A stretch of DNA of 59,988 bases, filler included, from Jimgerdemannia flammicorona (taxonomy: Eukaryota), in the NCBI GenBank assembly GCA_003990765.1. It is 3 parts of 3 records of this genome, joined end to end, with 100 filler letters (N's around TTAATTAATTAA, not from the genome) between each part and the next. Parts side by side here need not be neighbours in the genome. Positions count along the whole stretch, not along the records: positions 40,064 to 59,988 come from RBNJ01001803.1; 2 more parts are not named here. One strand, given 5' to 3'. The notes below the pieces were generated by a model. It did not search any database, was not told the origin of the DNA, and was given only the letters and a program-made list of their open reading frames with translations. The stretch's first letter is position 1, and every line of letters starts with the position of its first letter. Both the position numbers and the translations under genes were made by a program. This document shows positions 3,001 to 59,988 of the stretch, piece after piece.

Positions 3001-3481
3001 CCTAGCATTGAAAGGACTCTCAGTAGAAGGAGGAGTCATTGATGAGAATTACATAGGCGAAATTATTGTCCTCATTCGAAACCACAGTTGGACACCCTTC
3101 AAGATCCCTACTGGCTTCTGCATCGCCCAGATCCTATTCGAAAAAATTGAGTCAACCCTGATAGTTAAGGAAGTCCCTGAACTACTACCCACCATCCGAG
3201 GATCCAAAGGATTTGGCTCATCAAACAAGGTCCCAGTCCAACCTACCATGAGCAAAGAAGAATAATTCTATAAGAAGATAGAAGATGGATATATACCAAG
3301 TGGCCAATGCCCTCATAGTATTGGAATGTACTCTTCCCGAATGATTGATGATTGCTTCTCTTGTGTCAACGAACTGGCTCAAAGAAGAACCAATAGAAGA
3401 AAGGCTCCTACAACTGAAATCACCACAATTGGATCAGACAAACTGCTCACCCTTAAGACTTTTATCAATGGAGCATCTGTC
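1..3481 (+). mobile_element. Ty3/gypsy family A, copy 1 (partial 5' LTR 1-735, PBS, gag, zinc knuckle, dUTPase, start of protease; cut by LINE insertion)
   Basis: Colinear with the reverse complement of the full-length copy. LTR ends TTACA at 735, followed by ACT-TGGTAGCAG. Zinc-knuckle remnant and dUTPase (AGYDL...RGSKGFGSS) at ~2820-3225. Similarity stops at ~3481, just before the protease DSG motif. Multiple C>T stop codons. Confidence 0.93.
2176..2211 (-). mobile_element. Extremely 5'-truncated poly(A) retroposed insertion (15 nt + A21) with 17-bp TSD
   Basis: CATGATTGCTGAATCTC is duplicated at 2159-2175 and 2212-2228 around T21-ATAGTTACTTGGACT. The sibling copies (~13395-13411, ~23900-23916) have a single uninterrupted site. 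Confidence 0.85.
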
Positions 3482-5605: not shown

Positions 5606-5636
5606 AGGAGAGGTTTAATCTTTAACAATATTCCTC

Positions 5637-6237
5637 ATGAACAGTACAACTAACATTTTCTTGCTCAATGTGAATGGTCTTCGAGGATCTGGGTGGTGTA
5701 AGAACATTTTTACTTGGCTAAAGGGATTGGAGGCTGATCTCTTTTTACTGCAGGATGTACGGTGTAAGGATGAAGATGATCAGGTGGAATGAACTAAGGA
5801 ATGGGGTGGGGCTACTGCTTGGTTTGGAAAGGTGGTGATTCTGTTGAAGAAGGGTAGAGGAGATTTGGAAGGGATCAAGAACTGGGGATATTGACTGGTC
5901 TGGAGTGAATGGTACCAGCCAGGGTGGGAATCAGTGAGAGTGGGCTCATGCTACTGCCCAGTGGCTAGGGGAGAGAAGATTGCATGGATCAAGGAACCAC
6001 TGGAGGAGGGCATTCTTTTGGAGGATGGGGTCGATGTCCTTGGTGGTGATTTTAACATGGTTCAAGATTTGCAGTTGGATAGGACTGATGGAGGAAGAAA
6101 TGCTGGTGGGAGGAGTGGTGGTCTGGATGCATGGAAGGAGGTGGAAAACCTTAGCTCCTTAGGGGATATGGGCTGAACATGGTGGGGCGATACCAGGGTC
6201 TACACGCACTGGGTGAATGGCTTAGGGACAAGGATTG
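5637..6237 (+). pseudogene. LINE ORF2 AP-endonuclease, 5' part
   Basis: MNSTTNIFLLNVNGLRG, LLQDV, VGSCYCP, LGGDFN; ends at GTRI(D), where the LTR element is inserted. Confidence 0.88.
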
Positions 6238-8311
6238 TGTAAGGGGGTTACTTTTTAGGGTGACCGTTACGTAGTTCTGGAAGGGTTTTCTAGGAGTTCT
6301 GGATATTCTGGAAGACCGTTTTCTTATGGTCAAGATCAATTTCATATGGAGTATGTCCTCTATGCTTATTGATTTCAAGATCGGGTTGATGTCTCAACCA
6401 AAGTCCTTTTTTGGACTAGTTCTGGATGTTCAGGATTTTCCGTATTTCAGGAAGGTCAAGAAACTAAGACCAGCTTAGTTGAATTGGCGTATCGCTGCAG
6501 ACAATACCCAATTAGGAAATTTCATGACGGGGTTAGGAGTAGGACCTAACAAGGAGCAGATTTACTTAAGAGTAGTTTGTGGGTTATGGAATAGGTTTAT
6601 TTGCTATTCATGATATTGCTATACTAGGAGTAGTTGTGTGAAGGAATATTGTGGGGAAGTGCTCAGGAGTTGTGTTCGGATTATTCAAGTCTTTCAAGTC
6701 TGAGATTCTGAGGTCTGGGGGAGGGGGTATTTATACTAGTGAGGGGCTATCTGGACTATGCTGAATATGGATGTAGCACTAAGTGCCTTGCTGAGTCGGA
6801 ATACAGTCACGTAGTACAAGTGTAATCTGACATGTCAAGAGATCGTCTGACTGCTGAGTCAGTTCACAGTCACGTCGTACAAGGCTAATCTAACTATACT
6901 ATGACTGCTAGACTATTTATAGGTTTAGGCACTATCTGGGTAGTCCTCGATGACATCACCATCGATTGCATCATCTCTGGTGAAGTAGTCATCTAGGAAG
7001 AGTGGTTCGCGGATTACTTCTCCTTGTTGGCTAAGATAGTAATACATTGGGACTTCATCTCCATCCCACAGGATAGCATTGTCTGTTTCGTAAGCTGGAT
7101 AAGGTGTTGGTGGGTGAAGGATGGGTGTATTGTCTTTGCTTTCATCGGATTCGCTGTCTGCGTACCTTCTATAGGTTACAGTACTATGAGTCGCAGGGTT
7201 GTAGTAAGCTGGCGGCTGTGGTTCGAGTCGCTCGTACTCAGGTGGTGGGGTTGTTGGTTCGATCTCTAGGGTTGTTTGGAGGTACAGGTTGTGTTCTCCA
7301 GTCTCTTCATTGTAGTTGAAGTAGTCAGGGGTGAATGCGGGTTGGTATTCGTACCAGTGGTCATTGTCCCAATAAGTCTCATATGTAGTTATGAACTGTT
7401 GTAAGTTCATCAGTAAGGTTGGCGGAGTGATCAGGGTTGGCAGAGATTCTTGGCTTGAGGTTATGTCAGCGTCAGAGGGATCATTGTCTTCTGCTTCATC
7501 TTCATCGAAGTGGATTATATTGTAAACGTCCTTCATGGCATATCCGACTTGAGGCATTTGCAGGATATGGTCATCGGGGTGCGGGAAGGTTCTGTCTGTG
7601 GTTTTGACATACTTGAGGTACTTGTGGTTGATTTCTTGTATCATGTCATCGATTTGGCCATAGGACAGGGTAGTAACCATTTTGCTGATAGTGACTCGGA
7701 GGCGGGAAATAAAGGTATTGTACTCATAGAAGAGTTCTCGATGTTTGCGGGCGATAAGCTTTTGGTGTTGAGACATCTGGGTAGTATCTGTATTGTGGTG
7801 GTGTTCGACCATATCTTCTAGGAGGCGGCCGATCTGGTAGTAGCTTGAGATTTGTCCGATTCGGTGGGCCTCGCTAAGCATGTTCAGGGCATTCCATCAG
7901 GCTTCCACAAAGTAGAGGGGTGCCAGGCTATGGATATTCATGAGGGGCAGAGGGGGTGTGGCTCGGTTGACAATGGCATTCCAAATGTCAGCACGGATAC
8001 AGTTGTAGATCTCGGTGGTCATGTTTGTGTATTTGGAAGTTGTGGTTGTTGTTTGTTTTGGTTTTCTGATTTGACGCATCTTGGTGCTCGGTATATATGC
8101 ATTTGGTCCTGATTGGTAAGGTTCCGTTTGTATAGATCTTGTGTTCTGTGACTTCGTATTGACTCAGCTTTGTGTGCTGTGACTTCGGTTTGACTCAGCT
8201 TCGTGATCAAGCAGGTGATTTCCAGATTTGTTCGGAGGTCGTGTGTGATTTCAGTGGCTTTGTTCAGAGGGTGATGTGTAATTTCGGTGGCTTGGAGGTT
8301 GTGCGCTTACA
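6238..8311 (-). repeat. 3' LTR of family A (2074 bp)
   Basis: TG...CA termini; preceded on the minus strand by the PPT AAGAAGGGGAGAGT; near-identical to 14835-16899. Confidence 0.96.
6925..8022 (-). CDS. LTR(U3)-encoded accessory protein, family A (318-aa open part 6925-7881; 365 aa if the TGA at 7897-7899 is read as CGA)
   Basis: The long ORF is kept in both LTRs. The single upstream stop sits at a different codon in each LTR, so the consensus is open from MTTEIY. The ORF ends just before a TATAAATA motif. Confidence 0.75.
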
Positions 8312-8325
8312 ACTCTCCCCTTCTT
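8312..8325 (-). other. Polypurine tract (AAGAAGGGGAGAGT)
   Basis: Purine run abutting the 3' LTR; the same motif occurs at 25857-25870 in copy 3. Confidence 0.9.
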
Positions 8326-8739
8326 AGCTTTCGACGTCCTCGTCAGGGCCTTCTAATTTGTTCTAGTGTTGTTACACCATTTGGGAGGTCAAAAGTCTGG
8401 TAAGGTCCATTTTTCTCAGAAAGTGGCATGCTCGTAGTATAGTTGCCTAATGTGTTGGATTCACACATTAAAGGGTCGTGTGTTTAATGCCATGCACCGG
8501 AAGTGATTCTGATGTCGTTCACTGCTGGAGAATTTCCTCTAAGGAATCTTCTTAAATATCTATGCCTCGTTTCCCACCAGTGGTACAGAGAGAATAGGCT
8601 TGCTTTCAGTTTTGCTATTTTTTCCAGAGATTCAGTAGTCTTGTCTTGTTTTGCTGAGTTCTCAACTTGGTTCGTGATAGTTATAATGTTCAGGAGGATA
8701 ATATATAGTATGTACGGATAGGTGCAGAGTTTTTTGGTT

Positions 8740-11700
8740 CTAGTTGTTCAAGAAATCATATTCCTGAACTAGGTCAGTAGTATTCTGGAGATTGGTCTTG
8801 GGTTCCCAGGTTGCATCATGGATTGGGTAACCTTTCCATTTGACAAGGTACTCAGGATGGTTCTTGTTGCCACGTTTGTTGAGGATTTGTTCAACTTCAT
8901 ATTCTTCTTGGTCATTAATGATGACAGGTGCAGGTGGTTTGGTGGTCCGATTTGGAAATAGCTCATCATCATTGTCATTGTATCGCTTGAGACGTTGAAC
9001 ATTAAAGACTGGGTGAATCTTAATGGTATCTGGTAGTGCCAGTTTGTAGGAGGTTTGAGAGACTTATGCAATGACTTCAAATGGTTCAATGAACTTGCTG
9101 TTCAGCTTTGTGGATGGTCTGTGCTTGAGGTTATCAACTCGGTATCCTCTGATGTCTAGTAGAACTTTTTCTCCAATATCAAAAGTTTCTTCTCGGCGGT
9201 GTTGGTTAACATACTGTGACTGTTGTTCTTGAGCTCGTGATAAATTCTCAATTGCGATCTGGCTTAGATTGCGTATTCGGAGTAGGAATTCTTCAACAGC
9301 TTCGACTGTGGAGGGTTCTTCAGTAGTTCGGGTAAGTGTCAAAGGGGTGTTCGGGTTTTGTCCAGTATTAGCAAAGAATGGGGTCATTCCAAGAGAGGTT
9401 TGCTTGCTATTGTTATAGGCAAACTCGACTGTAGTGAGATGTTCATGCCAATCATCTTGTCTGTAGGAAACATAGTTCCTTAGCATTTGTTCCAGAGTTC
9501 GGTTCATTCTTTCGGTTTGGCCATCAGTTTCAGGGTGAAAGGCTGTGGATAGTGCAAGTTTCATTCCAAGGTATGCATGGAGGGTTTTCCAAAAGTGGCT
9601 GGTGAATTTCGGATCTCGGTCACTAACAATGATCTTGGGAAGACTATGATAGCGGAAGATGTTGTCAAACAAAAGTGTGGCTATGTCTGGTGCTGTTGCA
9701 GTAGTGGTAGTAGGTACAAAGTGGGCTTGTTTGCTGAGATAGTCCACAAAGACAACAATTGCATCTTTTCCGTTCTTGGTTCGGGGTAGTTGTACAATGA
9801 AGTCCATAGAGATTTGTTCCCAATTTGCAGATGGTACTGGAATAGGGTGGAGTAAGCCAGGTTTTGCTAGTGTTGAGGACTTGTTTCGTTGGCAGGCATC
9901 ACAGGAAGTGATATAGGTCTTGAGCTGATCTGCCATGCAGGGCCAATAGAAGTTTCGGGAGATAACTTCATAACATTTATCAAATCCTAAATGTCCAGCT
10001 GTAGGGGCATCATGACATTCGAATAGGATAGTCCTTCGGAGGTCTCGGTTGTTTGGAACATACAATCTGTCCTTGTAGTAGATAGCATTGTCCTTGAGTT
10101 GGTATTGATTGTACCGGGTATGCTTGTCGGTATCATCATTGTTCTGGATTTCTTGGAGTGCTTGAGCTTCTTTATCATCAACACATGCTGCGATGATTTG
10201 TTCCATGATAGTGTTGGTAACCAAGGTCAGAGTTTGGATAACTTCTTCAATTGGTGGTCTGGAGATTGCATCGGCAACGATGTTTTCCTTGCCAGAGTAG
10301 TACTGGATTTCATAGTCAAAGTTGGTGAGGACTTTCATCCATCTAGCTTGCTTTTGAGAAAGGGTAGCCTGTGTCTTGATGTTGACTAATGACTTGTGGT
10401 CAGTCAATATAGTGAAGTGTGCTCCTTCTAGATATGGTCGCCATTTGATCAGAGTGTCTACGATGGCTAGCATTTCCTTTTCGTGAGTTGCGTAGTTGAT
10501 TTCAGCATCGTTGAACTTGCGGGAGTGATAGGCCACAGGGTGTCCTTCTTGCATGAGCACTGCTCCAAGAGCTAGGTCAGAGGCATCAGTGGTGACTTCG
10601 TATAGTAGGGCAGGGTTTGCCACTTGAAGTACTGGTGTGGTTATCAGGACATCTTTCAGTACTTGAAAGGCGGTATCTTGTTCGGGTCCCCAATTTACAA
10701 GATTGTTGAAGTCTTTTTCTTGTTTCATGGTCCAAGGTTGTTCTTGTTTCTTGCTGTGCTTGGTCATTTGGGTGAGGGCAGTAGCGATTTTGGCAAAGTT
10801 GGCAACAAATCGCCTGTAATAGTTTGCTAATCCCAGAAATGATTGGAGGTCTTTCAGCTTCTTCAGTCTGGGCCAATCTTTGATTGCAGAGATTTTGCTG
10901 GGGTCCACTTTAATTCCATTCGGAGTAACAATGTGTCCAAGGAATTGAATTTCTTTCAGGAGAAATTCGCACTTGCTGAGTTTTGCAAAGAGATGGTTTT
11001 CTCAGAGTTTCAGTAGTACTAGTTCAAGGTGTTCAAGATGTTCCTCTAGGGTTTTGCTGAAGACTAGGATGTCATCAATGTAGACAACAACGAATTTGTC
11101 CAGGTATGGATACAGAATGGTATTCATCAGTGTCTGGAAGGTTGCTGGAGCATTAGTTAAGCCAAAGGACATAACCAGGAACTCGAAGTGTCCGTAGCGA
11201 GTTCGGAAAGCTGTCTTGTAGATGTCTTCTTCTTTCATGGCAATTTGCCAGTAACTATTTCACAGGTCAAAAGAGCTCATGAATTGTGGGTTGGTAAGTC
11301 TATCGAATATTTCATCGATCCTCAGTAGTGGGCAACAGTTCTTGATGGTCTGTTTATTGAGATCGCGGTAGTCGATGCACATTCGTAGGTCTCCTCCTTT
11401 CTTGACAATGAAGAGGACTGGTGCACCATAGGGTGATACGTTGGGTCTGATGAATCCTTATTCTAGGAGTTCGTCGATTTCCTTCTTGAGTGCATCAATT
11501 TCTCTCAGAGACATGTGGTAGATTGACTTGAAGGCTGGTTTGGCATCTGGAATAGTCTTGATGGCATGATCTACTGCTCGTTTCGGAGGTAGGCCTTTTG
11601 GGAGCTTCTTTGAGAATATGTCTCGGAATTTCTGGAGTAGTGATCTGACATGGCTGTCAACTTTGGAAAAATCCTCTTCAGAGTTCTCGGGTTCTCCTTT

Positions 11701-13872
11701 GGATGGTCAGATGGAGATGGTGAAGAGAGGACATTTCTTGGCCAATTTCTTGAGTTGTAGCTTGTTGATGTGGATGATCTTTGGTCCAGGGTCACTAGAG
11801 TTAAGTGAGTCCTTTTCGCCTTGTAGTTTGAAGTTGTGGCGTCCTTTCTTGATGGTTAGAGAATGGTTTACCCAATCGATCATAGGGTTCTCTTGTTTTA
11901 ACCATGGGGTTCCAAGGATGATTTCGTTGTCAGGAAGTGGTATGATTTGGAGGGTAACATGTACTCGGTAGTCGCCAATTCGGAAGGGTAGATTGCGGAC
12001 TTCTTTGCTAATAACATGTGAGGTTCCATCAGCTGTAGCAACTGCTTGAGTTTGCTGTACTGGGGAGGTGAAGACCTTGAGTCTGTTGGCTGTCTCTTTA
12101 TTGATGAAGTTGCCTGAGGCGCCACTGTCTATCATAATCTTGACAGGTGCTCTGTTGACAAAAGCCTTAAGGGTGAGCAGTTTGTCTGATCCAATGGTGG
12201 TAATTTCAGTTGTAGGAGCCTTTCTTCTGTTAGTTCTTCTTTGAGCCAGTTCGTTGACACAAGAGAAGCAATCATCAATCATTCGGGAAGAGTACATTCC
12301 AATACCATGAGGGCATCGGCCACTTGGTACATATCCATCTTCTATCTTCTTGTAGAATTGTTCTTCTTTGCTCACAGTAGGTTGGGCTGGGGCCTTGTTT
12401 GAAGAGCCAAATCCTTTGGATCCTCAGATGGTGGGCAGTAGTTCAGGGACTTCCTTGACTGTCAGGGTTGACTCGATTTTTTCGAATAGGATCTGGGCAA
12501 TGCAGAAGCCAATAGGGATCTTGAAGGGTGTCCAACTGTGGTTTCGGATGAGGACAATAATTTCGCCTATATAATCTTCCTCAATGACTCCTCCTTCTAC
12601 TGAGAGTCCTTTCAGTGCTAGGCTGCTGTGACAGCATATTCTTCCAACATGTCCTTCAGGGATTTGGATACTGATTCCTGTATAGACTTATTTGATTTCT
12701 CGGTTGGAAACTGTAGCTTCTTTGGCTGCATATAGGTCATATCCGGCTGCTTTTTGACTTCCTTTGGTTGGGGCCTTAGCAGTTTGTCTTAACTTGACAA
12801 AGTCTAGTATTCTGGTGGTCAGGTTGTTGAGGTGGTGCAGAGTAGTAACAGTTGCTCATGTTGCTGTTCGGGGTTTTCGGTTGGGGCAGACACTGGCCAT
12901 GTGTCCTGTCTTTTGGCAATAGAAGCATGCTCCGCTTCTTCGAAGTTCATTCCTTTCGCCTTCAGTGAGTTTCTTGAAGGTACTCGGCTGAGTGGGTTCA
13001 TGATTTCTGGGTGTCCACGAGGTGGATGTGGAGGGAGCTCGGGATGCTTCATACTTGGGTTCTTCTTTCTTAGTCCAAGTCTTTTCCTTGTTGTTGAATT
13101 GCCTTCAGGGCAGAATTGGTCCAGCTGTTAGGATTCGCTTGACCATAGTCTTGATTCTTGCCAGGCACCATTGTTGGTGATCGCAACCAACTGGGCAGCC
13201 TTGTTCTTGGATTTTTCTAGTAAGCCATTCAGGTAGGGCATCGAATAAATGGTCTGCTCTTGTACCATTTCGTGCTTCATCATTGGCAATGTATCCTAGG
13301 CCAACAGTGTTCAGGAGTGACTCGAGTTTTGTACAGAAGGTTTCGAATTCTTCTTTGCCATGTATGTCAAATTTGAGGTTGTGGAGTTTTACTCGAGATT
13401 TAGCAATCATGGTTTCACTGCGGTATTGAGCAATCATGAGTTGTTTGAGTCCAGGGGCTGCAGGATGGGCTCCATATCCTGGGGCATTGTTTGCTACATT
13501 CTGAGCAACCACTGCAGGTCGGGTATCCCATGTGAGGGGTTTTTCAGGAAGGGTTCGCCACCATTCTTCGGCAGGTCCTCGGAAGAATGTAACAACTCGG
13601 CGGACATAGGCTGTAGTGGTAGCGAAGAGTTGTTCCAGGGTATGGTCCTGATTGTTTGTCAGAACGCGGTCAGCAACTCGCTCATTGGTCCATTGATTGG
13701 CTTCAAAGTTGGTATCAACTACACTAATGAAGCTTTGAACTTCTTGTGCAGTACCATTGAAGGTAGGTAGGCTCAGATTTTTTGTAGGTCGGGTCTGTTC
13801 AGCTAAGGCAGTAATGGTTGCTGCCATTATAGCTACTTGGGCTGTGAGATCTAGAATCTGTTGGTTCGCCAT
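8740..13872 (-). pseudogene. gag-pol polyprotein of family A with scattered point stops
   Basis: Gag 13105-13872; CFYCQKTGHMASVC ~12885-12930; dUTPase ~12400-12805; protease IDSGAS ~12120; RT YIDD ~11075; RNase H TDASDLALG; integrase HDAPTAGH...CDACQ, SMDF, SDRD, PETDGQTE; chromodomain EEYEVEQIL...YLVKWKGY...TWEP ~8790-8910. Confidence 0.95.
12400..12805 (-). pseudogene. dut: Trimeric dUTPase domain in-frame between zinc knuckle and protease
   Basis: AAGYDLY, HSSLA (degenerate RSSLA), GGVIEEDYIGEI, IAQI, (R)GSKGFGSS match dUTPase motifs 1-5; also present at ~2820-3225 and ~24505-24915. Confidence 0.9.
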
Positions 13873-14819
13873 GTTGATTGCTGGAGACGGTTGGACTACT
13901 GGTAGTGGTGTTACTGGTACTACTTGAGGTACTGGTGCAGAGTGTGATAGGGTTCTTTGGGTCTGTGTAAGTTGCTGGAGTAGTAGTTGTAGATCTGGAG
14001 TGAGGGCTTGATAGATAGCTGTTTGTTGCTGTGTAGGTATATTCTGTCCTGATGGATGTGTGTCTCCTTCAGTAGTGTATCCGGGATCGAATTCGGTGAG
14101 ATACTCCTCCTCTTCTTCGGTTTGGTCCCCATATAATTGGGTTTGCTCGGCATCAAAGTAGACAGAATCAGTTGTATATCTGATTTCAGATGGACTTAAT
14201 TCAAAGTCAAGTTCAGGTTTGGTATTGGTTTCAGATTCAGATAGGGTTGTAGCAGGGCCTGCTTCAGGTTCGAGATCAGGTAGTTGATGAAGGGTTTCTC
14301 TTGCTTCTTCTTTCAGGATATGGCGGGCCTTGCTGTTCTGGAATCGGTAGTATAAGGCGGTCTTGGTTCTGATGCAGTGAAAGTCGGTAGAGTTGAGCCA
14401 CTTGGCTACAGAGGCTTGGGCTTCATGAGGAACTAAGGCTAGAAAGACTGCTGCTGGTTGTCCTAGATCACTCGGATTTGTAGAGCTGACAAAACTCTTG
14501 TTGAGAAGAGTAAAGAAGGCTTCAATAAGACCTTCTTCATCTTGACTTGCTGGGTATAGTGCAAGGAGTTCGGTGAATAGAGTTTCGCCTATTTGTTGGT
14601 TTAACTTGAGTACTTCTTTCTTTGAATGAAGTTTATCCCACTTGTTGCAGGTGTGGAGGTCAAATTGTCCTTGTACGTCAGGTTCAATTCTCTCCAGATT
14701 GTCAGATGGTTCAGGATAAATTTTAGTTCAGAGGTTGGGCTTTATACCAACTTGTAGGAATTCGCAGAGGGGTTTGTAGCGGGGTGAGGAAGCGTCTTGA
14801 AGCGGAATTGGATTGTAAA

Positions 14820-14831
14820 CCACTGCTACCA
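14820..14831 (-). other. Primer-binding site TGGTAGCAGTGG (probably initiator tRNA-Met)
   Basis: TGG lies 3 nt after the LTR end. TGGTAGC is complementary to the ...GCUACCA 3' end typical of initiator tRNA-Met; host tRNAs were not checked. Confidence 0.75.
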
Positions 14832-14834
14832 AGT

Positions 14835-16899
14835 TGTAAGGGGGTTACTTTTTAGGGTGACCGTTACGTAGTTCTGGAAGGGTTTTCTGGGAGTTCTGGA
14901 TATTCTGGAAGACTGTTTTCTTATGGTCAAGATCAATTTCATATGGAGTACATCCTCTATGCTTATTGATTTCAAGATCGGGTTGGCGTCTCAACCAAAG
15001 TCCTTTTTTGGACTAGTTCTGGATGTTCAGGATTTTCCGTATTTCAGAAAGGTCAAGAAACTAAGACCAGCTTAGTTGAATTGGCATATCGCTGCAGACA
15101 ATACCCAATTAGGAAATTTCGTGACGGGGTTAGGAGTAGGACCTAACAAGGAGCAGATTTACTTAAGAGTAGTTTGTGGGTTATGGAATAGGTTTATTTG
15201 CTATTCATGATATTGCTATACTAGGAGTAGTTGTGTAAAGGGATATTGTGGGGAAGTGCTCAGGAGTTGTGTTCGGATTATTCAAGTCTGAGATTCTGAG
15301 GTCTGGGGGAGGGGGTATTTATACTAGTGAGGGACTATCTGGACTATGCTGAATATGGATATAGCACTAAGTGCCTTGCTGAGTCGGAATGCAGTCATGT
15401 AGTACAAGTGTGATCTGACATGTCAAGAGATCGTCTGACTGCTGAGTCAGTTCACAGTCACGTCATACAAGGCTAATCTAACTATACTATGACTGCTAGA
15501 CTATTTATAGGTTTAGGCACTATCTGGGTAGTCCTCGATGACATCACCATCGATTGCATCATCTCTGGTGAAGTAGTCATCTAGGAAGAGTGGTTCGCAG
15601 ATTACTTCTCCTTGTTGGCTAAGGTAGTAATACATTGAGACTTCATCTCCATCCCACAGGATAGCATCATCTGTTTCGTAAGCTGGATAAGGTGTTGGTG
15701 GGCAAAGGATGGGTGTATTGTCTTCACTTTCATCAGATTTGCTGTCTGCGTACCTTCTATAGGTTACAGTACTATGAGTTGCAGGGTTGTAGTAAGCTGG
15801 TGGCTGTGGTTCGAGTTGCTCGTACTCAGGTGGTGGGGTTGTTGGTTCGATCTCTAGGGTTGTTTGGAGGTACAGGTTATGTTCTCCAGTCTCTTCATTG
15901 TAGTTGAAGTAGTCAGGGGTGAACGCGGGTTGGTATTCGTGCCAGTGGTCATTGTCCCAATAAGTCTCATATGCAGTTATGAACTGTTGTAAGTTTATCG
16001 GCAAGGTTGGCGGAGTGATCAGGGTTGGCAGAGATCCTTGGCTTGAGGTCATGTCGGCGTCAGAGGGATCATTGTCTTCTGCTTCATCTTCATCGAAGTG
16101 GATTATATCGTAAATGTCCTTCATGGCATATCCGACTTGAGGCATTTGCAGGATATGGTCATTGGGGTGTGGAAAGGTTCTGTCTGTGGTTTTGACATAC
16201 TTGAGATACTTGTGGTTGATTTCTTGTATCATGTCATCGATTTGGCTATAGGACAGGATAGCAACCATTTCGCTGGTAGTGACTCGGAGGCGGGGAATAA
16301 AGGTATTGTACTCATAGAAGAGTTCTCGATGTTTGCGGGCGATAAGCTTTTGGTGTTGAGACATCTGGGTAGTATCTGTATCATGGTGGTGTTCGACCAT
16401 GTCTTCTAGGAGGCGGCCAATCTGGTAGTAGCTTGAGATTTGTCCAATTCGGTAGGCCTCGCTAAGCATGTTCAGGGCGTTCTATCGGGCTTCCACAAAG
16501 TAGAGGGGTGCCAGGCTATGGATATTCATGAGGGGCAGAGGGGGTGTGGCTCGGTTGACAATGGCATTCCAAATGTCAGCACAGATATGGTTGTAGATCT
16601 CGGTGGTCATGTTTGTGTGTTTGGAAGTTGTGGTTGTTGTTTGTTTTGGTTTTCTGATTCGACGCGTCTTGGTGCTCGGTATATATGCATTTGGTCCTGA
16701 TTGGTAAGGTTCCGTTTGTGTAGATCTTGTGTTCCGTGACTTCGTATTGACTCAGCTTTGTGTGCTGTGACTTCGGTTTGACTCAGCTTCGTGATCAAGC
16801 AGGTGATTTCCAGATTTGTTTGGAGGTCGCATGTGATTTCAGTGGCTTTGTTCAGAGGGTGATGTATAATTTCGGTGGCTTGGAGGTTGTGTGCTTACA
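14835..16899 (-). repeat. 5' LTR of family A (2065 bp)
   Basis: TG...CA termini; followed on the minus strand by the PBS TGGTAGCAGTGG. Confidence 0.96.
15513..16610 (-). CDS. Second copy of the LTR-encoded accessory protein (open 15513-16469; TGG>TAG at 16482-16484)
   Basis: Same-length 318-aa ORF, near-identical to 6925-7881. Confidence 0.75.
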
Positions 16900-16904
16900 G
16901 ATTG

Positions 16905-19900
16905 ACTGGATTCTGACAGCTGAATGTTGGGGTGCTGATGTCTAGAAGACTTTGGAGGTGGTGTGGTGCCCATGGTCTGATCACTGGGGACTGATTGGCC
17001 AGGGGCGGTTTGGGGAGAGTGGAGATGGACCTGGACATTGGTGTCTTAACTCCTCCCTGCTGGCCAAGAAGGGGTTGTGGGACTCATGGGTAGAGGACAT
17101 ATAGGCAAAGATTCCGTTTTGGAGGCAGGAGGGTTTATCTGTAGATGTCCGTTGGATGAGATTGAAGGAGACTGCGAGGGTTTATTGGGGAGGAGCTGGT
17201 AGGGAGGCAGGAAGAAGGAGGAGGAGGCAAATACAGTCTGCCTCCAATAGGCTGAGGAGATTGCAGTTGGAGTGGGCAGATTTGCTTGCGTCTGATGAGG
17301 TGGAGGATTGGAGGTTAGTGAGGGCGAAATTGGAGGTTGTAGAACTGCAACAGGTGTTGCGAGAGGAGGAGGAGATTCATATGCAAGGTATGGCGGCCAG
17401 GCTTAGATGGCAGGGGCTTGAGGAGGGGGAGTGGCCTACTAGGTACTTGTCTAGGCTCCTCAAAGCCAGGCAGGTGAGGCATAGGTGAGATGGGATCTTG
17501 AATGCTGAGGGAGAGTTGGTGCATGGCATGCAGCAGATCCTGGGAGTGTTGAAGGAGAATTGGCGGGGTCTGTGGAGTGAGGAAGAAGGGGGTGCTGATG
17601 CAGAGGCGATTGGTGACACACTGAAAGAGTGGGAGCCACCACAGGTAGAGGGGCTGGATGACTTGACCTTACCTGTCCAGGAGGAGGAGATATAAGGTGT
17701 CCTGGCAGTGACTAAGCTTGGGACGGCACCAGGGGAGGATGAGTTACCGTGGGACTTCTGGAAGAAGATGGTGGAAGTCCCAGGGATGCTGGGTGAGATG
17801 GCGGCCCTCTGTGACCATGTTCTTCTGAATGGCATATGGGTTGGTGAGCAGGACTTAGGGCTGGTTGCCCTATTGTACAAAGATAAGAGCCGGTGTGAGG
17901 ATTGGAAGAACTGGAGGCCAATCATGCTGCTAGATATGGATTGGAAGTTGGTGACTAAGGTGATTGTTGCAAGGCTACAGAAGGTTGCTCAACAGGTGCT
18001 GGGGGAGGAGCAGCGGGGCTTTGTAGGTGGTAGACTTATAAGAGATGGAACTGCCTGAGTACATGGCATTATTGAAGGAGCCCGGGCCTGTGGACTGGAT
18101 GGGAGACTGGTCTTTTTGGATCAAGAGAAGGCCTATGACCATATTTGGTGGGTTTGGTTGGGCAAGGTACTGGACAGGATTGGTGTTCTGCCACAGTTTC
18201 GGGCCTCTATATTGAGTTTGTTGGAAGGGAGTCGAGCAGCGCTGATGTGTAATAGCCACAGGGGTTTGGCATTCCCCTTGGGGAGAGGAGTCCCTCAGGG
18301 GGACCCACTGTCTCCTATCCTTTATGCACTCTCCTTGGAACCTTTGATGGACAGGATCTGTAAGAGAGTGACTGGGCTCTCTGTATATGACGTGGAATGG
18401 AAGGTGGGGGCCTTTGCAGATGACATGGTAGTTGGACTTGGATCAGTAGCGGATGTAGAGGCTCTTCGGGAAACAGTGGAGTGGTATGAGGCACACTCTG
18501 GAGCAAAGCTCAACTGGCATAAGTGTGAGACAATGGTGCTGGGAAATGGGCTAGTGGGAGGGAATGTCATTGGAACAATTGTCCCCACAGGAGAGGTGGT
18601 GTGGTACCTCGGTATCTTCCTCTCTGTATATGGATCAGTCCTACCATGGATATGGTGGGAGAGGAGGGTAGCCATTTGGGGAGAGGCTCTAAAAGGCTGG
18701 GGGGGTTATCACATCTCCCTGGCAGGGAGAGTGGCAATTCTGAATGTATACTGGTTCCCCAAGCTATGGTATGTGGCATATCACTTAGACTTTTCTACTT
18801 GGGTGGTAAAGAGGCTGATGAAACTGGCTAGGGATTGGATTTGGGCTGGTAGAAGAGCCCAGATCAGTTGGGATACCCTTGTCAAGCCAGTGCTTAGGGG
18901 AGGCCTGGGCCTTGTAGATTTTCCTAAGCGTCTACACTGCCTGTGAGTTTGGTGGTTGAGAAGGGCTGTTGATCTACAGGGTGGAGGTTGGGTGCCATTG
19001 ATAAAGAAGGTATGGGAGATGAGAGTCTCCCCCCAGGGGTCCACAGAGGATCTACTCTCTTTGGTGGGTCTGAATGGAAGCCGACAGTTATGGTATAAGG
19101 GCTTCTGGTGGGGAGTGGTTGAAGGGGCACACCGGATAGGTCTGTGCTGGCAGGAAAATGAGGGGGAGGAGGTATGGGGTCCAGCGATATGGCAATGGGA
19201 CTGTCTGCTTCTAGGGGGAGTTCCACTAGCTGAGTTTGACATTGGCAATGGAGTAGAGTGTCAGCGGCGAATTGGCCAGGATCTTTGGCCAAGTAGCTGG
19301 CAGGCGGTGAGGATTGGTGAAGAGTGGGATTGGGCAAGGATCTGGTCTTAGAGTATGGAGATCCGGCGGTGGCTCCCTCCCAAGTTCTGGGTAGTGTGGT
19401 AGCATATGTTGTGGAGGAATGTTATGTTGAACTTCCATGCTGGGTATCTGGTAGATGGGGGTCAGCTGGATTGTGAGGAGTGTTATAATGTTGGGCAAGT
19501 TGGGGGTTTTGTGCAAATGCCAGAACATTGGCTGGGGGAGTGTGAGGTTCTGGGTGACTTTTGGATAGCTGTAGGAGACTGCCTTGGGGTTGAAAGGAGA
19601 CCAGATGGGGAGAGAGGTCGCTGGGAAGATCTGGAATCTAGACTTGTGGGAGGTGTCAGTAATAGGTAGCTTACTATAGGATGGGTTGTGGCAGTGTGGG
19701 TGGGGTTGGCTGGACATTGGCTCTTTGTTTTTGAGGAGGGGTGACAGATAGGGATACAGGAGAAATTATTGAGATGGGAGGAGTTGGTGGCGGATTTGTT
19801 GACAGAGTGGTGGGTTGGGTGGGGACTGCAAGGTGGGTGACGTCGCCGGCTGGTGGAAGGGATCTGTGAGCAGAGTGGTGGGTGGGTGGTGATGGTGTTT
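16905..19900 (+). pseudogene. LINE ORF2, 3' part (end of APE, reverse transcriptase, CCHC)
   Basis: (D)WIL and SDH, then RT motifs in ORFs 17708-18058 and 18116-18946 (FADD), then a zinc-knuckle-like CEEC/EHWLGEC in 19406-19669. Confidence 0.9.
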
Positions 19901-19936
19901 GATAAAGTGGTTTTTCATCAAGAAGGGGTAGGGGGG

Positions 19937-20036
19937 NNNNNNNNNNNNNNNNNNNNNNNNNNNNNNNNNNNNNNNNNNNNTTAATTAATTAANNNNNNNN
20001 NNNNNNNNNNNNNNNNNNNNNNNNNNNNNNNNNNNN
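19937..20036. other. Assembly gap / artificial contig linker
   Basis: N44-TTAATTAATTAA-N44. Confidence 0.99.
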
Positions 20037-33415: not shown

Positions 33416-34679
33416 AGCAGTATAGGTATTGAGATATTAGATTCCTTTTAGAATGTTATCACTTAATGATTAGAGTTATAGTATATATACAAACTATTGC
33501 ATTTTTGTGAGATTTCAGTTTTGTTTCATTTTGGTAATACATATGTTGTCTCTCTTATTAGAGTTACTATTATGAGCTACCTATTAGTACAAAACATTGT
33601 AATGGCTTGCTTTTCAATTTTATTTAAAAGAGGGCTCAGTTGTCAGTTTTTTTGTTTTTTAGATTTTATTATGCCATCATGAGGCAACCATCTGAACAGA
33701 GTTCAGAAGCTGGTCCAAGAGTATTAGCTAGATAGTTTGTTACTTTATATTTTTATAGAAGAGGTGGTTTTGGGCTTTTGTTTCACTATCATGAGGTAAC
33801 CATCAGAGCAAGGCTTTAAAGCTGGTCCAATGATGATACCTGAAGGCAACTGTCTGAACAGAGTTCAGAAGCTGGTTCAAAGGGTTTTAACTAGATAGCT
33901 TCTTACTATATATACTTATAGATTATATATTTTTGTTCTTTGTATTTGGGGTTCAAGATTTATTTAATATTCTGAATAGAATATATATATATAAATATAT
34001 ATAATATAAATAAAGAGTATATGTCTTTATTGTTTAAATAGATAAAAATAAAACAAAGACTATAGTTTTCTTCCTGATAGATATCAGCCAAATTAACACA
34101 TCAAATCTATTGAATGTTATGGAAGATTGTGGTCACTCAGTTATAGTTGTGACATATTTACTCACAAACTTAGATATCATTCAATAGATTTGTTATAATC
34201 ATCTGACTAGTATCTGCAATAAGCTCAATATACTATAGTTATAGTATAAAGGTGGAGAGGAAGAGAGAGATGAAAATGGGGCTGAAGTAGAATTATTAAA
34301 GTACCACCAATAAGAAGAGTAGTGCTAGATATTCTATAGAGCAATTTCTATTATAGGGCAATTACTACACAATAGGGCCCCTGTGAGCAGGGGGGTTACT
34401 TTCACTAGTTATATTATGAAAATCTTACCTAATGGAATAATATTGAGGTTGGTTATACAATCTTTGAAAAAGATAGCTAGTTTCTTCAGATCAATAACAA
34501 AGCTATTTAATAGCAAAATTAAAATCAAAATTTATAATACTCACATATGTCTTATATCACAAAATCTATATCAGGTGAAGATTTTGCACATAATGTTATC
34601 AGACAATATCTATTTTGATTCTCAAAATAAAACCAATATATATTTCTCCTTTTTACATACTCTATTTGCTATATGTGAA

Positions 34680-35050
34680 ATAGCTAACATTATAACTCTT
34701 AACTGCCTTGTCCAAGGTGACACCCCTCTATCTGAATGTGCATTCTCTGTCAAAATTACCAAGACTGAGAGCATTGATAAACTCAAAGAGCTGATAAAAG
34801 AGAAGATCATCAATATAGTTAATGTAACTTTCAATGCTAAAAATCTCAAACTTTAGAAGGTCAACATCCTTCTTAATAAATCCAATAGTAAGCTGGCTGC
34901 CCTCATAGCTGATACCAATACCAACTTTGATATCAAGAATATACTGTGTGGTGGGATGTTGTCAGCATTGCTATACAAGATTGGCAAGATCTTTCCTGAG
35001 GAGCTTATAGAGGAATATATTCATATTATTGTCTAGTATCCTACTACAAT
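34680..35050 (+). pseudogene. Crinkler (CRN)-type N-terminal ubiquitin-like domain pseudogene
   Basis: ITLNCLVQGD...AFSVKI...LKELIKEK...AKNLKL*KV (LxLWKV)...IFPEE...IHIIV. Start ATG>ATA and TGG>TAG lesions. Decayed exon-like sequence continues to ~37100. Confidence 0.85.
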
Positions 35051-55676: not shown

Positions 55677-56415
55677 AAGATGACCGTGTTCATGAATCTC
55701 GATGGGTCGGCCGCGTGCAAGAAAGCAGAGCGGGAGGTGCGGTTTCCGCTTTTTGCGACGGCTGCGTGCCGAAATAATAACGATTCCTTGGCAACTGCGA
55801 AGCCGTTTGAGCCGACGTTCGGTTAACGGAATGGCATTTGGATCGGGGCCCAGAGTTCTTGGCCATCTGCGCTTTCGCCGTCGAGCTTCGCCATGACGCC
55901 GCCAGCGTAGCAGGCATTAAGCGGCAGCAGGATCCTGTCGACCATGAGGGGAAGTTGAGCTTCTCGAAAAAAAAAATCTCCGTCGATTGCATGCTTCTCG
56001 AGAGGTTCGCCTTGTTTGTAACCAGGAATAGTTTGCCGTCCGATGCCCGCTTACGCCCGCGGCGCTGCGATGTTTAATGACATCTAACTCCTCGATGATG
56101 ACTGTGCGTGTGGCCCTCTCGTCTTGGAGAAGCTTGACTTGGTTCTTGGGATAGTCACAACGAAGATTCGGTGGGAACCTCGTTGAACCACTTTGCGTCG
56201 TTGATAGTGTACTCGAAGCTCGCCGTAGCCATTGAGCGACGAGTGCAATGCCATTGGCGAAGGTTTTCGCAGAGGATTAGGTTTTCGTGATGAACAAAGT
56301 TTGCTTGGGACGAGGTATTCGTATTGGGGTGAGTTTTCGAGGGGTTATTATCTCTAAATGTGGGGTCGTCGATTGCAGTAGAAGCAGATTGATTTTCCTC
56401 GATGGGGGTGTTCAA
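55677..56415 (-). pseudogene. Frameshifted paralog of the caspase-like gene, truncated at the copia LTR
   Basis: ASFEYTINDAKWFNEVPTE and LNACYAGGVMAKLD are nearly identical to the gene at 57655-58932; indels break the frame. Confidence 0.9.
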
Positions 56416-56941: not shown

Positions 56942-56972
<31 letters not shown>

Positions 56973-57075: not shown

Positions 57076-57304
57076 TGAGTTTTAATATCAACGAGTATCG
57101 CCTCGTCACCAAATGTCACTGTCGTCGTCATCGTACCTAGAAGCCGTTTGTCCATAAACACGCCGAGTTTTAATGGCAACTGGAATCGTCTCATTACCAA
57201 AGTCGCTGTCGTCGCCATCGCACCTAGAGGCATTTTTATCCATAAACATCCTGAATTTTAATGGCAACGAGTATCGTCTCATTACCAAAGTCGCTGTCGT
57301 CGCA
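57076..57304. repeat. 88-bp tandem repeat, ~2.6 units
   Basis: The TTTTAAT..CAAC anchor recurs ending at 57092, 57180 and 57268. Confidence 0.85.
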
Positions 57305-57654: not shown

Positions 57655-58932
57655 TCAGTGATTTACAATAGAAAATGTTGCACCAGGGCCAAACACGCTT
57701 CCGGCTATATTATTCCCATTTGTCACATTTGTCGTCCCATTAATATTGTTTTGGATACCGCCTTGGCGCCAATCCCTGTTCTTTTCATCTTTCTCATCAT
57801 CTTCTGTGCTCTCCTCGATGTCGATCTCGATCTCGAGATCGTCAAGCAATTGGAATTTACGCCCCGACCCGAGTTGATAGCAGCCAACTGCAAAGTTGGC
57901 ACCGTCAAAGTCACAGTGTGGCATCTGACATTTTTTGGTTTTTGCGTGTACGTACGTTGTACACGCCGCAAAGAGGTCGGCTGTGTAGACGAGGCCGTCG
58001 TCGTTCTCTGTCTTGGCGGTCCCAGAGAACCCTCGCGCGAGGCCAATCGTGAAAGGGCTGTACCTCGTCTTGCGATCTTTGGCCAGGTGTGCGGTTTCGG
58101 CTTTTTGCGAGGACTGAGCCGCCGAAATAATGACGACTCCTTGGCCTAGGCCTCTGCGAAGCCATTTAAGCTGACGTTCGTTGAACGGAATGGCCTTTGA
58201 ATCAGGGTCGAGAGTTCTTTTGCCATCTACGCCTTCGTCGTCGAGCTTTGCCATGACGCCACCAGCGTAGCAGGCATTGAGCAGCAGCAGGATCCTGTCG
58301 GCCATGAGGGAGTTGAGGTTCTCGAACAAAACATCTCCGTCGATTGCTTCTGTCTCGAGAGGTGCACCTCGGCCACAACCATGAGGGAGCAGGAATACTT
58401 TGCCGTCCGAAAGCCGCCTATGCCCGTGGCCGGAAAAGAATACAACAACCGTGCTGCTTTCGCTCGATTTGCCGATACGATTTTTGATGACATCCAACTC
58501 CTCGATGATGGCTGCGCGGGTGGCCTCCTCTCCTTGGAGGAGCTTGACTTGGCTCTCGGGATAGCCACACAACGAAGGTTCGGTGAGAACCTGGTTGATC
58601 CACTTTGCGTCATTGATAGTAGACTCGAAACTCGGCGAAATCTGGCCGGAGCCATTTGTGCCTGTGCCGATGACGAGTGCATGACCATTGAGGAAGGCTT
58701 TCGTTTTAGGTACGGATCCCATGGTAGTCAAGGGTATCGTGGTGGGCAACGTTTGCTCGGGAGAGGTATTTGTGGCGGGCAAAGTTTGCTCGGGCGAGGT
58801 TTTTGTGGTGGGCGAAGTTTGCTGGGGCGAGGTTTTTGTGGTGGGCAAAGATTGCTTGGGCGAGGTTTTTGTGGTAGGCAAAGTATGTTTGGTCAAGGTC
58901 TTTGTGTTGGTTTTGGAGGGTTTAGAGCCCAT
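57655..58932 (-). CDS. Caspase-like peptidase C14 (metacaspase/orthocaspase-type) protein, 425 aa
   Basis: Intact ORF in CpG-rich DNA. Motifs: HALVIG, INDAKWI...L, LLQGEEATRAAI, VVFFSGHG (H169), LLLLNACYAG (C221), IISAAQSSQKA, SPFT, CQMP. N-terminal MGSKPSK and 11-aa T/P repeats. Confidence 0.9.
   Translation of the reverse strand: MGSKPSKTNTKTLTKHTLPTTKTSPKQSLPTTKTSPQQTSPTTKTSPEQTLPATNTSPEQTLPTTIPLTTMGSVPKTKAFLNGHALVIGTGTNGSGQISPSFESTINDAKWINQVLTEPSLCGYPESQVKLLQGEEATRAAIIEELDVIKNRIGKSSESSTVVVFFSGHGHRRLSDGKVFLLPHGCGRGAPLETEAIDGDVLFENLNSLMADRILLLLNACYAGGVMAKLDDEGVDGKRTLDPDSKAIPFNERQLKWLRRGLGQGVVIISAAQSSQKAETAHLAKDRKTRYSPFTIGLARGFSGTAKTENDDGLVYTADLFAACTTYVHAKTKKCQMPHCDFDGANFAVGCYQLGSGRKFQLLDDLEIEIDIEESTEDDEKDEKNRDWRQGGIQNNINGTTNVTNGNNIAGSVFGPGATFSIVNH
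58735..58895 (-). repeat. 33-bp coding tandem repeat (TLPTTKTSPEQ-like, ~5 units)
   Basis: Repeated GGGCGAGGTTTTTGTGGTGGGC on the plus strand. Confidence 0.9.
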
Positions 58933-59504
58933 GATACGATCAGAAGAAAATCGAGACGCACAATATATTTATACTGATTTGTAGCAGGTGCACAATGAGC
59001 TAGTTTGACAGAGTAAACAATATCAACTTTGTGTACAACGTTCCGGAAACGACAGAGGTGTTCCTGGGGTTCGGGTTCGTTTGGGAAATATTTCTGGTCA
59101 GCAGATAGATCTAATCGAATCGGATGCATTGATTTTTACTTTAAGAGCCACCGTGGCTCCTCTTGCTTTGGCGCCACAACCAAAAACCGTTGAGATCGGC
59201 CGTCATTGCTTACCGCAGTCGCCGCAGTCAGCCTGTACACCCCGAGTAATTTAAGTATGCGGCTCCGAAATTTTATGTCACCGTCAAGCGGGACAACCTG
59301 CAACATCCCCTACCAGGCCTTGTTGTCAGAGGTGTATCAGAAACTGACTAATGCTTGGGTTGTTGCAATTAAAAAATAAGAGCTATTCAAAATTAGAGAA
59401 GAGATGGGTTCAAATAAAGAGAGTGTAAGTATATATATATATATATATTATTATTTGATATATGTAGATGACTGTTGAGTAACAAGTAATTTGTAGCTTG
59501 ATGC

Positions 59505-59988
59505 CCCTTTCTCCGCTACCTTACTGGTCACAAGGTTTGGTAGGCAACCTTCCGAGTCCACTTTCTACAACTATTACCCCCTCTACCTCAGATTGGTTTG
59601 CTGTACCTGTTGCAGGGTAGTGGGAGAGAGGCAATAGTGATGAGTTGCCCCTTTATTGGTGTCTGATCAGTGTCTTCTCCACTTTTTTGTGGTTTCTGGT
59701 ACCTTTGGCTGTGTCTGGGGTGTACTCATTTTGGTGCAGCACCTTCTTCCTTTTGCCATCACCAATAAGATATTATCTTGGTATATCATGGATTATATAG
59801 GAAGTTGGCCAACCTTGGATATAAAGTGCTCAGTATAGGTTATCTGCAGGTCCTTGATATCTGTGGTGGGGCCCTCTGGCTTTGGTGAGCTTTCTGACAA
59901 ACACAGTTCTGGTATAGGTAACTATTTTTCAGGTAGTGTCAGGGTGGAAGGGGAGATGGCCATCATAGATAAGAGAATAAAATAAAAA
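59505..59988 (-). repeat. Second copy of the unclassified repeat at 20700-21190
   Basis: Reverse-complement similarity over ~480 bp; runs off the window end. Confidence 0.8.

Follow-up and report, generated by a model that had tools for sequence, protein, structure and literature searches.

A conserved, charge-free C-terminal tail on caspase-like proteins of Endogonales as a candidate homotypic recruitment motif

The DNA analysed here (the window) is a stretch of 59,988 nucleotides from the genome assembly of Jimgerdemannia flammicorona (GCA_003990765.1), made up of parts of three records joined by filler letters, and in the last of these parts (RBNJ01001803.1) it carries on the minus strand a gene for a caspase-like protein of 425 amino acids (aa), P0001, that ends in an acidic linker and a short tail rich in asparagine and glycine. 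We give roughly even chances to the reading that this tail serves as the homotypic recruitment and activation motif of a latent caspase-like cysteine protease. The protein belongs to a multi-paralogue family of Endogonales, and the nearest kin of that family are prokaryotic caspase effectors from STAND-NTPase (NB-ARC/NACHT) conflict systems. The initial annotation of the locus had described a C14 domain, an acidic linker and a charge-free N/G-rich tail, all of which were correct in sequence and position, and had read the protein as an amyloid-activated effector, an interpretation that is partly supported overall: the tail is conserved, occurs outside the family as well and fits the matched-tail logic of the prokaryotic relatives, but the window and two database searches of low power yielded no fungal partner, and Pfam gave no match to an amyloid family. 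‘Homotypic recruitment motif’ is thus the better-supported wording and ‘amyloid’ is offered as a hypothesis.

The open reading frame (ORF) extends from stop to stop over 57655–58968 and its first ATG, at 58932, gives a complete single-exon coding sequence (57658–58932, minus strand, from the ORF translation) whose product ends in ...DDLEIEIDIEESTEDDEKDEKNRDWRQGGIQNNINGTTNVTNGNNIAGSVFGPGATFSIVNH, followed by the stop codon at 57655–57657. A tblastn comparison of the window with P0001 gave a 100% match over residues 1–425, and the protein is 100% identical, over the shared parts, to a ‘hypothetical protein’ of J. flammicorona. Pfam Peptidase_C14 (PF00656) matches residues 83–341 (E 1.1e-11, 45.3 bits against a cut-off of 21.4), and on the combined evidence of Pfam, the family alignment, AlphaFold2 (AF2) and Foldseek the boundary of the clan CD domain was set wider, at residues 83–362 (57847–58686, minus strand). 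The catalytic residues His169 (FSGHGH) and Cys221 (LLNACYAGG) are at least 90% conserved in the 20 family members and their motifs align with SGHG and DCCHAGG of the prokaryotic homologues. AF2 run with the family alignment is confident over residues 83–376, with a predicted local distance difference test score (pLDDT) below 50 for residues 1–74 and 377–425, so that the tail is predicted to be disordered as a monomer. A Foldseek search of the PDB returned 118 matches at E ≤1e-3, headed by GSU0716, metacaspases, MALT1 and legumain; phmmer with P0001 against PDB sequences returned no match. Having the profile match, the His–Cys dyad and the caspase–hemoglobinase fold, P0001 is a member of Peptidase C14/clan CD, and as J. 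flammicorona is classified in Endogonales (Mucoromycota) the earlier description of a caspase-like protease from an early-diverging fungus is correct.

The linker (residues 363–384, 57781–57846, minus strand, delimited from the family alignment) holds the family-conserved element (F/Y)PLLGDDhxFDIE and then an E/D-rich stretch; 30–67% of linker residues are charged across 18 members, and in P0001 53% of the 30 residues preceding the tail are charged. The tail (residues 384–425, 57658–57783, minus strand, delimited from the tail profile, the alignment and the shuffle test described below) is 34–42 aa long, charge-free and N/G-rich, with hydrophobic positions in alternation, and over its final 34 residues P0001 has no D, E, K or R but 24% N, 18% G and 26% hydrophobic residues. 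The span originally reported for it, 57655–57770, takes in the last 36 codons (residues 390–425, 57658–57765) plus two residues and the stop. From a homology search that found 65 proteins, 20 (the window's protein counted) form a close family at 33–75% identity, comprising three from Jimgerdemannia, eight from Endogone sp. FLAS-F59071 and the rest from metagenome or Logan proteins, with domain identity of 41–50% for most members; no relative turned up when metagenomes were scanned with the family alignment. The C-terminal pattern, with the core G-x-x-[IFL]-x-G-x(1-2)-[SN]-[FY]-G-[ND]-N-A-x-[FI]-S, is present in 18/20 members. The tail alignment (A2, n=18) omits P0015, with its expanded, repeated tail, and the divergent P0021, whose catalytic motifs are altered, and the tail profile matches neither of them. 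All 18 tails share two invariant glycines and, between these, a hydrophobic position, and the [SN]-[FY]-G-[ND]-N-A-x-[FI]-S continuation is kept in the majority.

The profile built on these tails matches P0001 residues 384–425 at 39.2 bits. For a leave-one-out test, the profile of 17 tails was used to score the remaining tail and 100 composition-preserving shuffles of it, it being noted that close paralogues inflate this test; 14 of the 18 tails exceeded all 100 shuffles and one further tail was reached by 2/100. The P0001 tail scored 24.6 bits against a shuffle maximum of 6.6, and its nearest relative shares 43% of tail positions. The positional signal thus lies above composition in 14/18 tails, and the tail is more than random low complexity. 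By comparison of sequences it has the form of a short C-terminal effector motif, set behind a flexible linker and conserved among orthologues, and the initial annotation's own ground for abandoning its reading, a tail unconserved in homologues, falls away since the tail is kept in 18/20 members and passes the shuffle test. Overall the comparative support for the role of the tail, that from the prokaryotic relatives included, is strong.

The caspase family is not the only place where the tail motif occurs. When 1.84 billion representative proteins were searched exhaustively with the profile, seven matched at E ≤1e-3, namely four family caspases, P0067, P0068 and P0069. The top match, P0067, is an acidic bacterial repeat protein that aligns with profile positions 3–24 only and was rejected as spurious. 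P0068 (a 214-aa fragment) and P0069 (272 aa), neither of them a caspase, carry two (E 5.6e-5) and four (E 8.8e-4) tail-core stretches respectively, and BLASTP aligned them to caspase tails with 13/30 and 10/22 identities. Neither has a significant Pfam family or a match in metagenome contigs or genome contigs; P0069 is a singleton, and its AF2 model, made without an alignment, was uninformative (mean pLDDT 37). The presence of the core motif in these two proteins makes it a module of more than one protein type, as a shared interaction motif predicts.

This bears on a different account of the C-terminus, in which linker and tail would act in cis as an autoinhibitory or pro-peptide segment, cut at h-x-F-D-h-E or docked on the protease, with no partner involved. 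The C-terminal pro-segments of clan CD enzymes such as legumain offer a precedent, and legumain structures are among the Foldseek matches. The conserved PLLGDDhxFDIE element immediately precedes the tail, and AF2 places a strand at residues 368–372 beside the domain with moderate confidence. Against this, AF2 leaves residues 377–425 undocked at the low pLDDT given above, the motif is repeated in proteins that lack a protease, and in the prokaryotic clade described next the tail matches the N-termini of other proteins, and we regard cis-regulation as distinctly unlikely. As an observation on the linker itself, its h-x-F-D-h-E sequence resembles a caspase-type cleavage tetrapeptide.

Beyond the family the homologues are of prokaryote type and come with EAD1, TIR_2 and zinc ribbon domains (EAD7 and TCAD2 fell below the cut-off), the nearest non-fungal relatives being prokaryotic caspases of Anaerolineae, Nostocales and Methanothrix. 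With P0023 as query, 43 loci were collected from species-representative prokaryotic genomes, mostly Anaerolineae, Nostocales and other filamentous cyanobacteria, and Methanothrix; a caspase ORF could be recognised in 38 of these, and in 36 of the 38 the linker was followed by a tail of 25 aa or more. In these proteins the domain is followed by a linker, GLPFxGEPEIEPEPG, that by eye resembles the fungal PLLGDDhxFDIE and acidic linker, and then by a G/N/Q/V-rich region. A tail was counted as matched when a local match of 28 bits or more fell in the first 200 aa of an ORF of at least 400 aa at the same locus, and by this measure the caspase tail matches the N-terminus of a large neighbour in 20/36 loci. 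There were 40 N-terminal matches against 3 elsewhere, with the first 200 residues making up only 30% of the residues in those ORFs; reversed tails matched at 0 loci and five sets of shuffled tails at 0, 2, 0, 0 and 0. At least one matched partner has an NB-ARC or NACHT domain in 14/20 loci (16/23 partner ORFs in one Pfam scan, with three more from a separate scan), other partners being VMAP-C or WD40 proteins, and seven partner ORFs start with Pfam EAD10. Among the pairs, a Methanothrix caspase and the adjacent NB-ARC–TPR protein have a G-x-IYKP-x-G-x-V motif in common, and an Anaerolineales pair shares a zinc ribbon and the motif G-[DE]-VSGQVA-[VI]-G.

The Nostocales caspases (311–320 aa) have a 35-aa N/Q/G-rich tail directly after the acidic linker, and the core of this tail, GKYN-h-NIGQ...IGD, corresponds to the middle of the N-terminal EAD10 of their partners; residues 284–310 of a 311-aa Nostocales caspase match EAD10 positions 34–60 of 77 with E 5e-4, below the cut-off. 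At eight Nostocales loci (L016, L018–L021, L023, L027 and L042) caspases of 307–320 aa carry only the approximately 25-aa EAD10 middle as a tail, and several neighbouring NB-ARC–TPR, NACHT–HEAT, VMAP and WD40 proteins there begin with the full EAD10, suggesting that a short beta-type core may be the interacting element of EAD10. In a further Anaerolineales locus (L017, 7842–11483, plus strand) the caspase continues into a fused C-terminal part of some 900 aa, with 35–48% identity to three large ORFs nearby, which appears to be an ‘all-in-one’ form of the same prokaryotic caspase system. The fungal caspase domain aligns over its whole length with one such Nostocales caspase (31% identity, E 6e-31), so that the fungal tail occupies the position of the EAD10-core tail in homologous caspases, that is, the position of a sister-clade tail demonstrably matched to the N-termini of neighbouring STAND sensors. 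This matching of tails to N-termini is taken to support the fungal tail as a homotypic recruitment motif. It agrees with the ‘EAD principle’ of homotypic recruitment, as set out in the available part of Kaur, Burroughs, Iyer and Aravind (PMC8195603), and with the pairing of BASS motifs C-terminal to CHAT metacaspase domains with NOD-like receptors (NLRs) reported in the accessible text of 10.1101/2020.01.06.895854.

A number of results weigh against a recruitment role for the fungal tail, beginning with the tail itself, where mean pairwise identity is 0.19 as against 0.49 for the domain and 0.27 for the linker, making the tail the part that evolves fastest; three tails (P0007, P0017 and P0020) were indistinguishable from their shuffles, and proline occurs in some tails. 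Scoring against models of amyloid motifs, which the initial annotation had proposed as a check, went against it, in that a Pfam scan of the 18 tails at E up to 10 gave 0/18 matches to amyloid-motif or EAD families and a single weak unrelated match, and the 52-aa P0001 tail scanned at E up to 1 gave no Pfam family. Pfam is presumed here to hold models for the HRAM, PP and sigma motifs. Nor was kinship with the prokaryotic tails detected: hhalign of the fungal tails (A2) with an alignment of Nostocales tails and EAD10 cores (A3) gave a probability of 0.3%, the fungal tail hidden Markov model (HMM) had a best E of 0.21 against 1184 prokaryotic ORFs, the A3 HMM a best E of 0.13 against the fungal proteins, and no cross-HMM search between fungal and prokaryotic tails went below E 0.04. 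A glycine spacing that is alike by eye had prompted the idea that the fungal tail is homologous to EAD10 or to the prokaryotic tails, which is therefore unsupported, and with no similarity at the Pfam, hhalign or HMM level the fungal tail is treated as a distinct motif, outside EAD10 (PF19954) and the named amyloid motif families.

The search for a partner was also negative on the fungal side. The statement in the initial annotation that no partner NLR is visible in the window holds, there being no NACHT or NB-ARC domain in the 34 ORFs scanned of the 55 that are at least 120 aa long, and no Walker A motif in the six-frame ORFs of at least 20 aa. Among 1842 six-frame ORFs there is no second copy of the tail motif, the profile matching only the gene's own tail; a GIGNYFSGS-like stretch in an ORF at 59839–59985 (plus strand) scored 4.9 bits (E 2.7), has no preceding start codon and was treated as chance. 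It should be noted that the window extends only about 1 kb upstream of the caspase gene. The initial annotation had also looked to NACHT/NB-ARC proteins as carriers of the motif, and none came out of two database searches: a word-index search with the tail profile (8000 scored candidates) returned 11 proteins, all of them family caspases, and the exhaustive profile search returned no NLR, although its power is low for a motif of about 40 aa. Some 35 bits are needed for E ≤1e-3, a score reached by only 11 of the 18 tails in the training set, so that a diverged N-terminal copy would easily be missed and an NLR-side copy is not refuted. In addition, Mucoromycota have few canonical NLRs, some species having as few as one, according to the portion of PMC12258605 at hand, and Bifiguratus, the Endogonales proteome of that study, appears only in the species list among the supplements searched.

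Some of these results would suit a tail that is a relic, i.e. a remnant of the bacterial adaptor tail that lost its partner and is kept as a generic disordered, N-rich, low-complexity segment (e.g. for solubility or condensation). Such a segment could well be the fastest-evolving part of the protein, find no partner in either the word-index or the exhaustive search and resemble no bacterial tail. It would not be expected to keep two glycines and a hydrophobic column invariant in 18/18 members where most domains are only 41–50% identical, to give a positional signal above composition in 14/18 tails or to be reused in P0068 and P0069, and on this basis we consider a relic quite improbable. Within the recruitment reading, a stricter version would make the tail a prion-like amyloid motif, with an NLR bearing an N-terminal copy of it as the template, following the logic of HET-S/NWD2. 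The composition and position of the tail and the predicted disorder of the monomer fit known motifs of this kind, the matched partner in the prokaryotic loci is mostly an NB-ARC or NACHT protein (the 14/20 above), and BASS–CHAT pairs are in print (10.1101/2020.01.06.895854, as far as the accessible part goes). However, no motif-bearing NLR came out of the window or of two database searches, both of low power, none of the 18 tails matches the Pfam amyloid-motif families, P0068 and P0069, the two carriers found that are not caspases, show no NTPase domain, and NLRs are scarce in Mucoromycota (PMC12258605, in the part available), leaving this stricter version possible but doubtful.

The position of the C-terminus depends on the gene model, and here the deposited NCBI model of the same gene (P0002) differs from the one used above. 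It skips residues 83–194 (58351–58686), the catalytic His included, and a splice at the V423 codon takes it into an ORF further downstream, which runs up to and into an 88-bp tandem repeat. If P0002 were right the true C-terminus would be another one, and the tail as described a gene-model artefact; P0002 does stand as the annotated model and a GTAAAT sequence overlaps the V423 codon. Even so P0002 retains 39/42 tail residues, its other intron deletes the catalytic His, and the sequence it adds runs into the 88-bp repeat. Furthermore the 18 homologues are collinear with the unspliced ORF and lack the P0002 introns, 13/18 of them end 0–3 residues from the tail-profile match, and two contigs from RNA-type libraries lie inside the P0002 ‘intron’ (58498–58690 and 58516–58666). 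From the collinearity, the contigs and the matching ends the intron-less 425-aa protein is taken as the product, and an artefact seems highly improbable. In all, sequencing runs supplied five short contigs on the caspase gene, from three runs, all of them within 58081–58865, and the tail is covered by none.

The mechanism that we favour, at the even chances given at the outset, is as follows. A latent caspase-like cysteine protease would hold its disordered tail behind the flexible acidic linker until a partner with the same motif, either a sensor or a multi-motif hub like P0068 and P0069, nucleated co-assembly of the tails. This assembly would be beta-rich and possibly amyloid-like; it would cluster the protease domains and so activate them by proximity, and the activated caspase would then cleave death or immune substrates. 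The sequence comparisons establish the domain, its catalytic residues, a conserved tail that recurs outside the family and the matching of tails in the prokaryotic relatives; a surviving partner of the fungal tail, an amyloid-like assembly and the output of the pathway are what we infer here. The AF2 predictions are neutral towards the recruitment reading, neither helping nor hurting it, and a prediction of a complex of four tails scored 0.02 with no model returned. In a bolder and, in our estimate, rather unlikely form of the same idea Endogonales would have taken the caspase from NLR-type systems of filamentous bacteria, expanded it and added a new, lineage-specific beta-type signalling motif shared with domain-less P0068/P0069-like hubs of two to four spaced copies, which would polymerise in the manner of ASC specks and fire the caspases. 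Held just as tentatively, this would amount to an inflammasome-like, amyloid-nucleated caspase pathway, possibly tuned to endobacteria or to plant partners.

Four known systems invite comparison with the fungal family. The prokaryotic STAND-linked caspases, which include the 311-aa Nostocales proteins with an EAD10-core tail and Anaerolineae proteins with a G-rich tail and zinc ribbon, have a homologous domain, the same order of caspase, acidic E/P-rich linker and short uncharged N/G/Q-rich C-terminal tail, and an overall size of 311–345 aa for most members. They differ in that the fungal tail is unrelated to theirs in the Pfam, hhalign and cross-HMM tests, that the fungal family is multi-paralogue, lies in retrotransposon-rich DNA and has no adjacent or other partner known, and that P0001 and P0003 add an N-terminal repeat region. 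In the metazoan inflammasome caspase-1 is recruited into CARD/ASC filaments, CARD being a folded six-helix domain; the resemblance is by analogy only, in that proximity activates a caspase once a module attached to it has polymerised homotypically, whereas the fungal module is a short disordered tail with no sequence relation to CARD. The BASS motif (Dyrka et al. 2020, in the part of the text available) follows CHAT metacaspase, TIR2 and hydrolase domains at their C-terminal side, in pairs with NLRs, and here too an effector of caspase type ends in a short motif that a sensor is presumed to share; its protease domain is however CHAT (PF12770) and not C14, and its hosts are bacteria. The fungal amyloid motifs (HRAM of HET-S/NWD2, PP, sigma and PUASM) are again 20–40-aa C-terminal effector motifs behind a flexible linker, G/N-rich with conserved glycines and hydrophobic positions, PUASM for example having the pattern FxGxGxQxxGxGxF in the available part of PMC9815663. 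The Endogonales tails are unlike them in that 0/18 match the Pfam families that model them, that their known effectors are HeLo, HeLo-like, SesA/B and PNP_UDP domains rather than caspases and their known taxa Dikarya, and that they are defined by a copy on the NLR side, which the Endogonales motif searches did not find.

Several other features of the gene and its surroundings may be recorded. An N-terminal low-complexity region (58739–58910, minus strand, from Tandem Repeats Finder, the translation and the low AF2 pLDDT of residues 1–74) contains a 33-bp tandem repeat of 5.2 copies encoding 11-aa T/P/K/Q-rich repeats, five of which follow the start MGSKPSK of P0001. Both long Jimgerdemannia paralogues, P0001 and P0003, begin MG-x-x-x-S-K, a putative N-myristoylation start, and other family members begin directly at the caspase domain with no N-terminal repeat region. 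Directly 3′ of the gene lie an A28 run (56942–56969) and the 88-bp tandem repeat (2.6 copies, 57077–57303) that the NCBI gene model reads as coding. About 1.3 kb downstream of the intact gene tblastn found a degraded second caspase copy (55734–56349, minus strand) that matches in three frames with an in-frame stop, is nearer to the paralogue P0003 (71% over 63 aa) than to P0001, and stops matching near P0001 residue 283, having neither linker nor tail. The window as a whole is rich in retrotransposons, with Ty3-type reverse transcriptase (RT), RNase H, integrase and protease ORFs and a zinc-knuckle ORF. Within 4000–20000 the Ty3-type protease, RNase H, integrase and RT ORFs lie on both strands, the GC skew is strongly positive (up to +0.47) and several long ORFs have no Pfam match (13105–14727, 6925–7896 and 15513–16481). 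A dUTPase ORF lies at 2768–3265, and an ORF in an AT-rich stretch (34329–34856, plus strand) has at its C-terminal end a match to the N-terminal domain of Crinkler effectors (PF20147, E 1.1e-8).

Activation of death effectors by NLR-driven amyloids or adaptors is described, in the parts of the literature available, for Dikarya and filamentous bacteria, and CHAT proteases fused to fungal NLRs and BASS–CHAT pairs in bacteria are likewise already known from such sources. In the portions of the literature covered by the search no such motif is described in early-diverging fungi, and no C14 caspase is described as a motif-bearing effector in fungi. What the present comparison adds is a conserved new motif family on a caspase of probable bacterial ancestry, together with the matched-tail statistics of 36 prokaryotic loci, in which some caspases carry only the EAD10 core of about 25 aa. 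Should the tail indeed work in recruitment, the motifs of this kind would gain a new family. It would also link regulated cell death in fungi to a bacterial NLR–caspase module, probably gained by horizontal transfer, and would provide, in a 40-aa peptide on a protease, a testable system for the origin of proximity-activated caspases outside animals.

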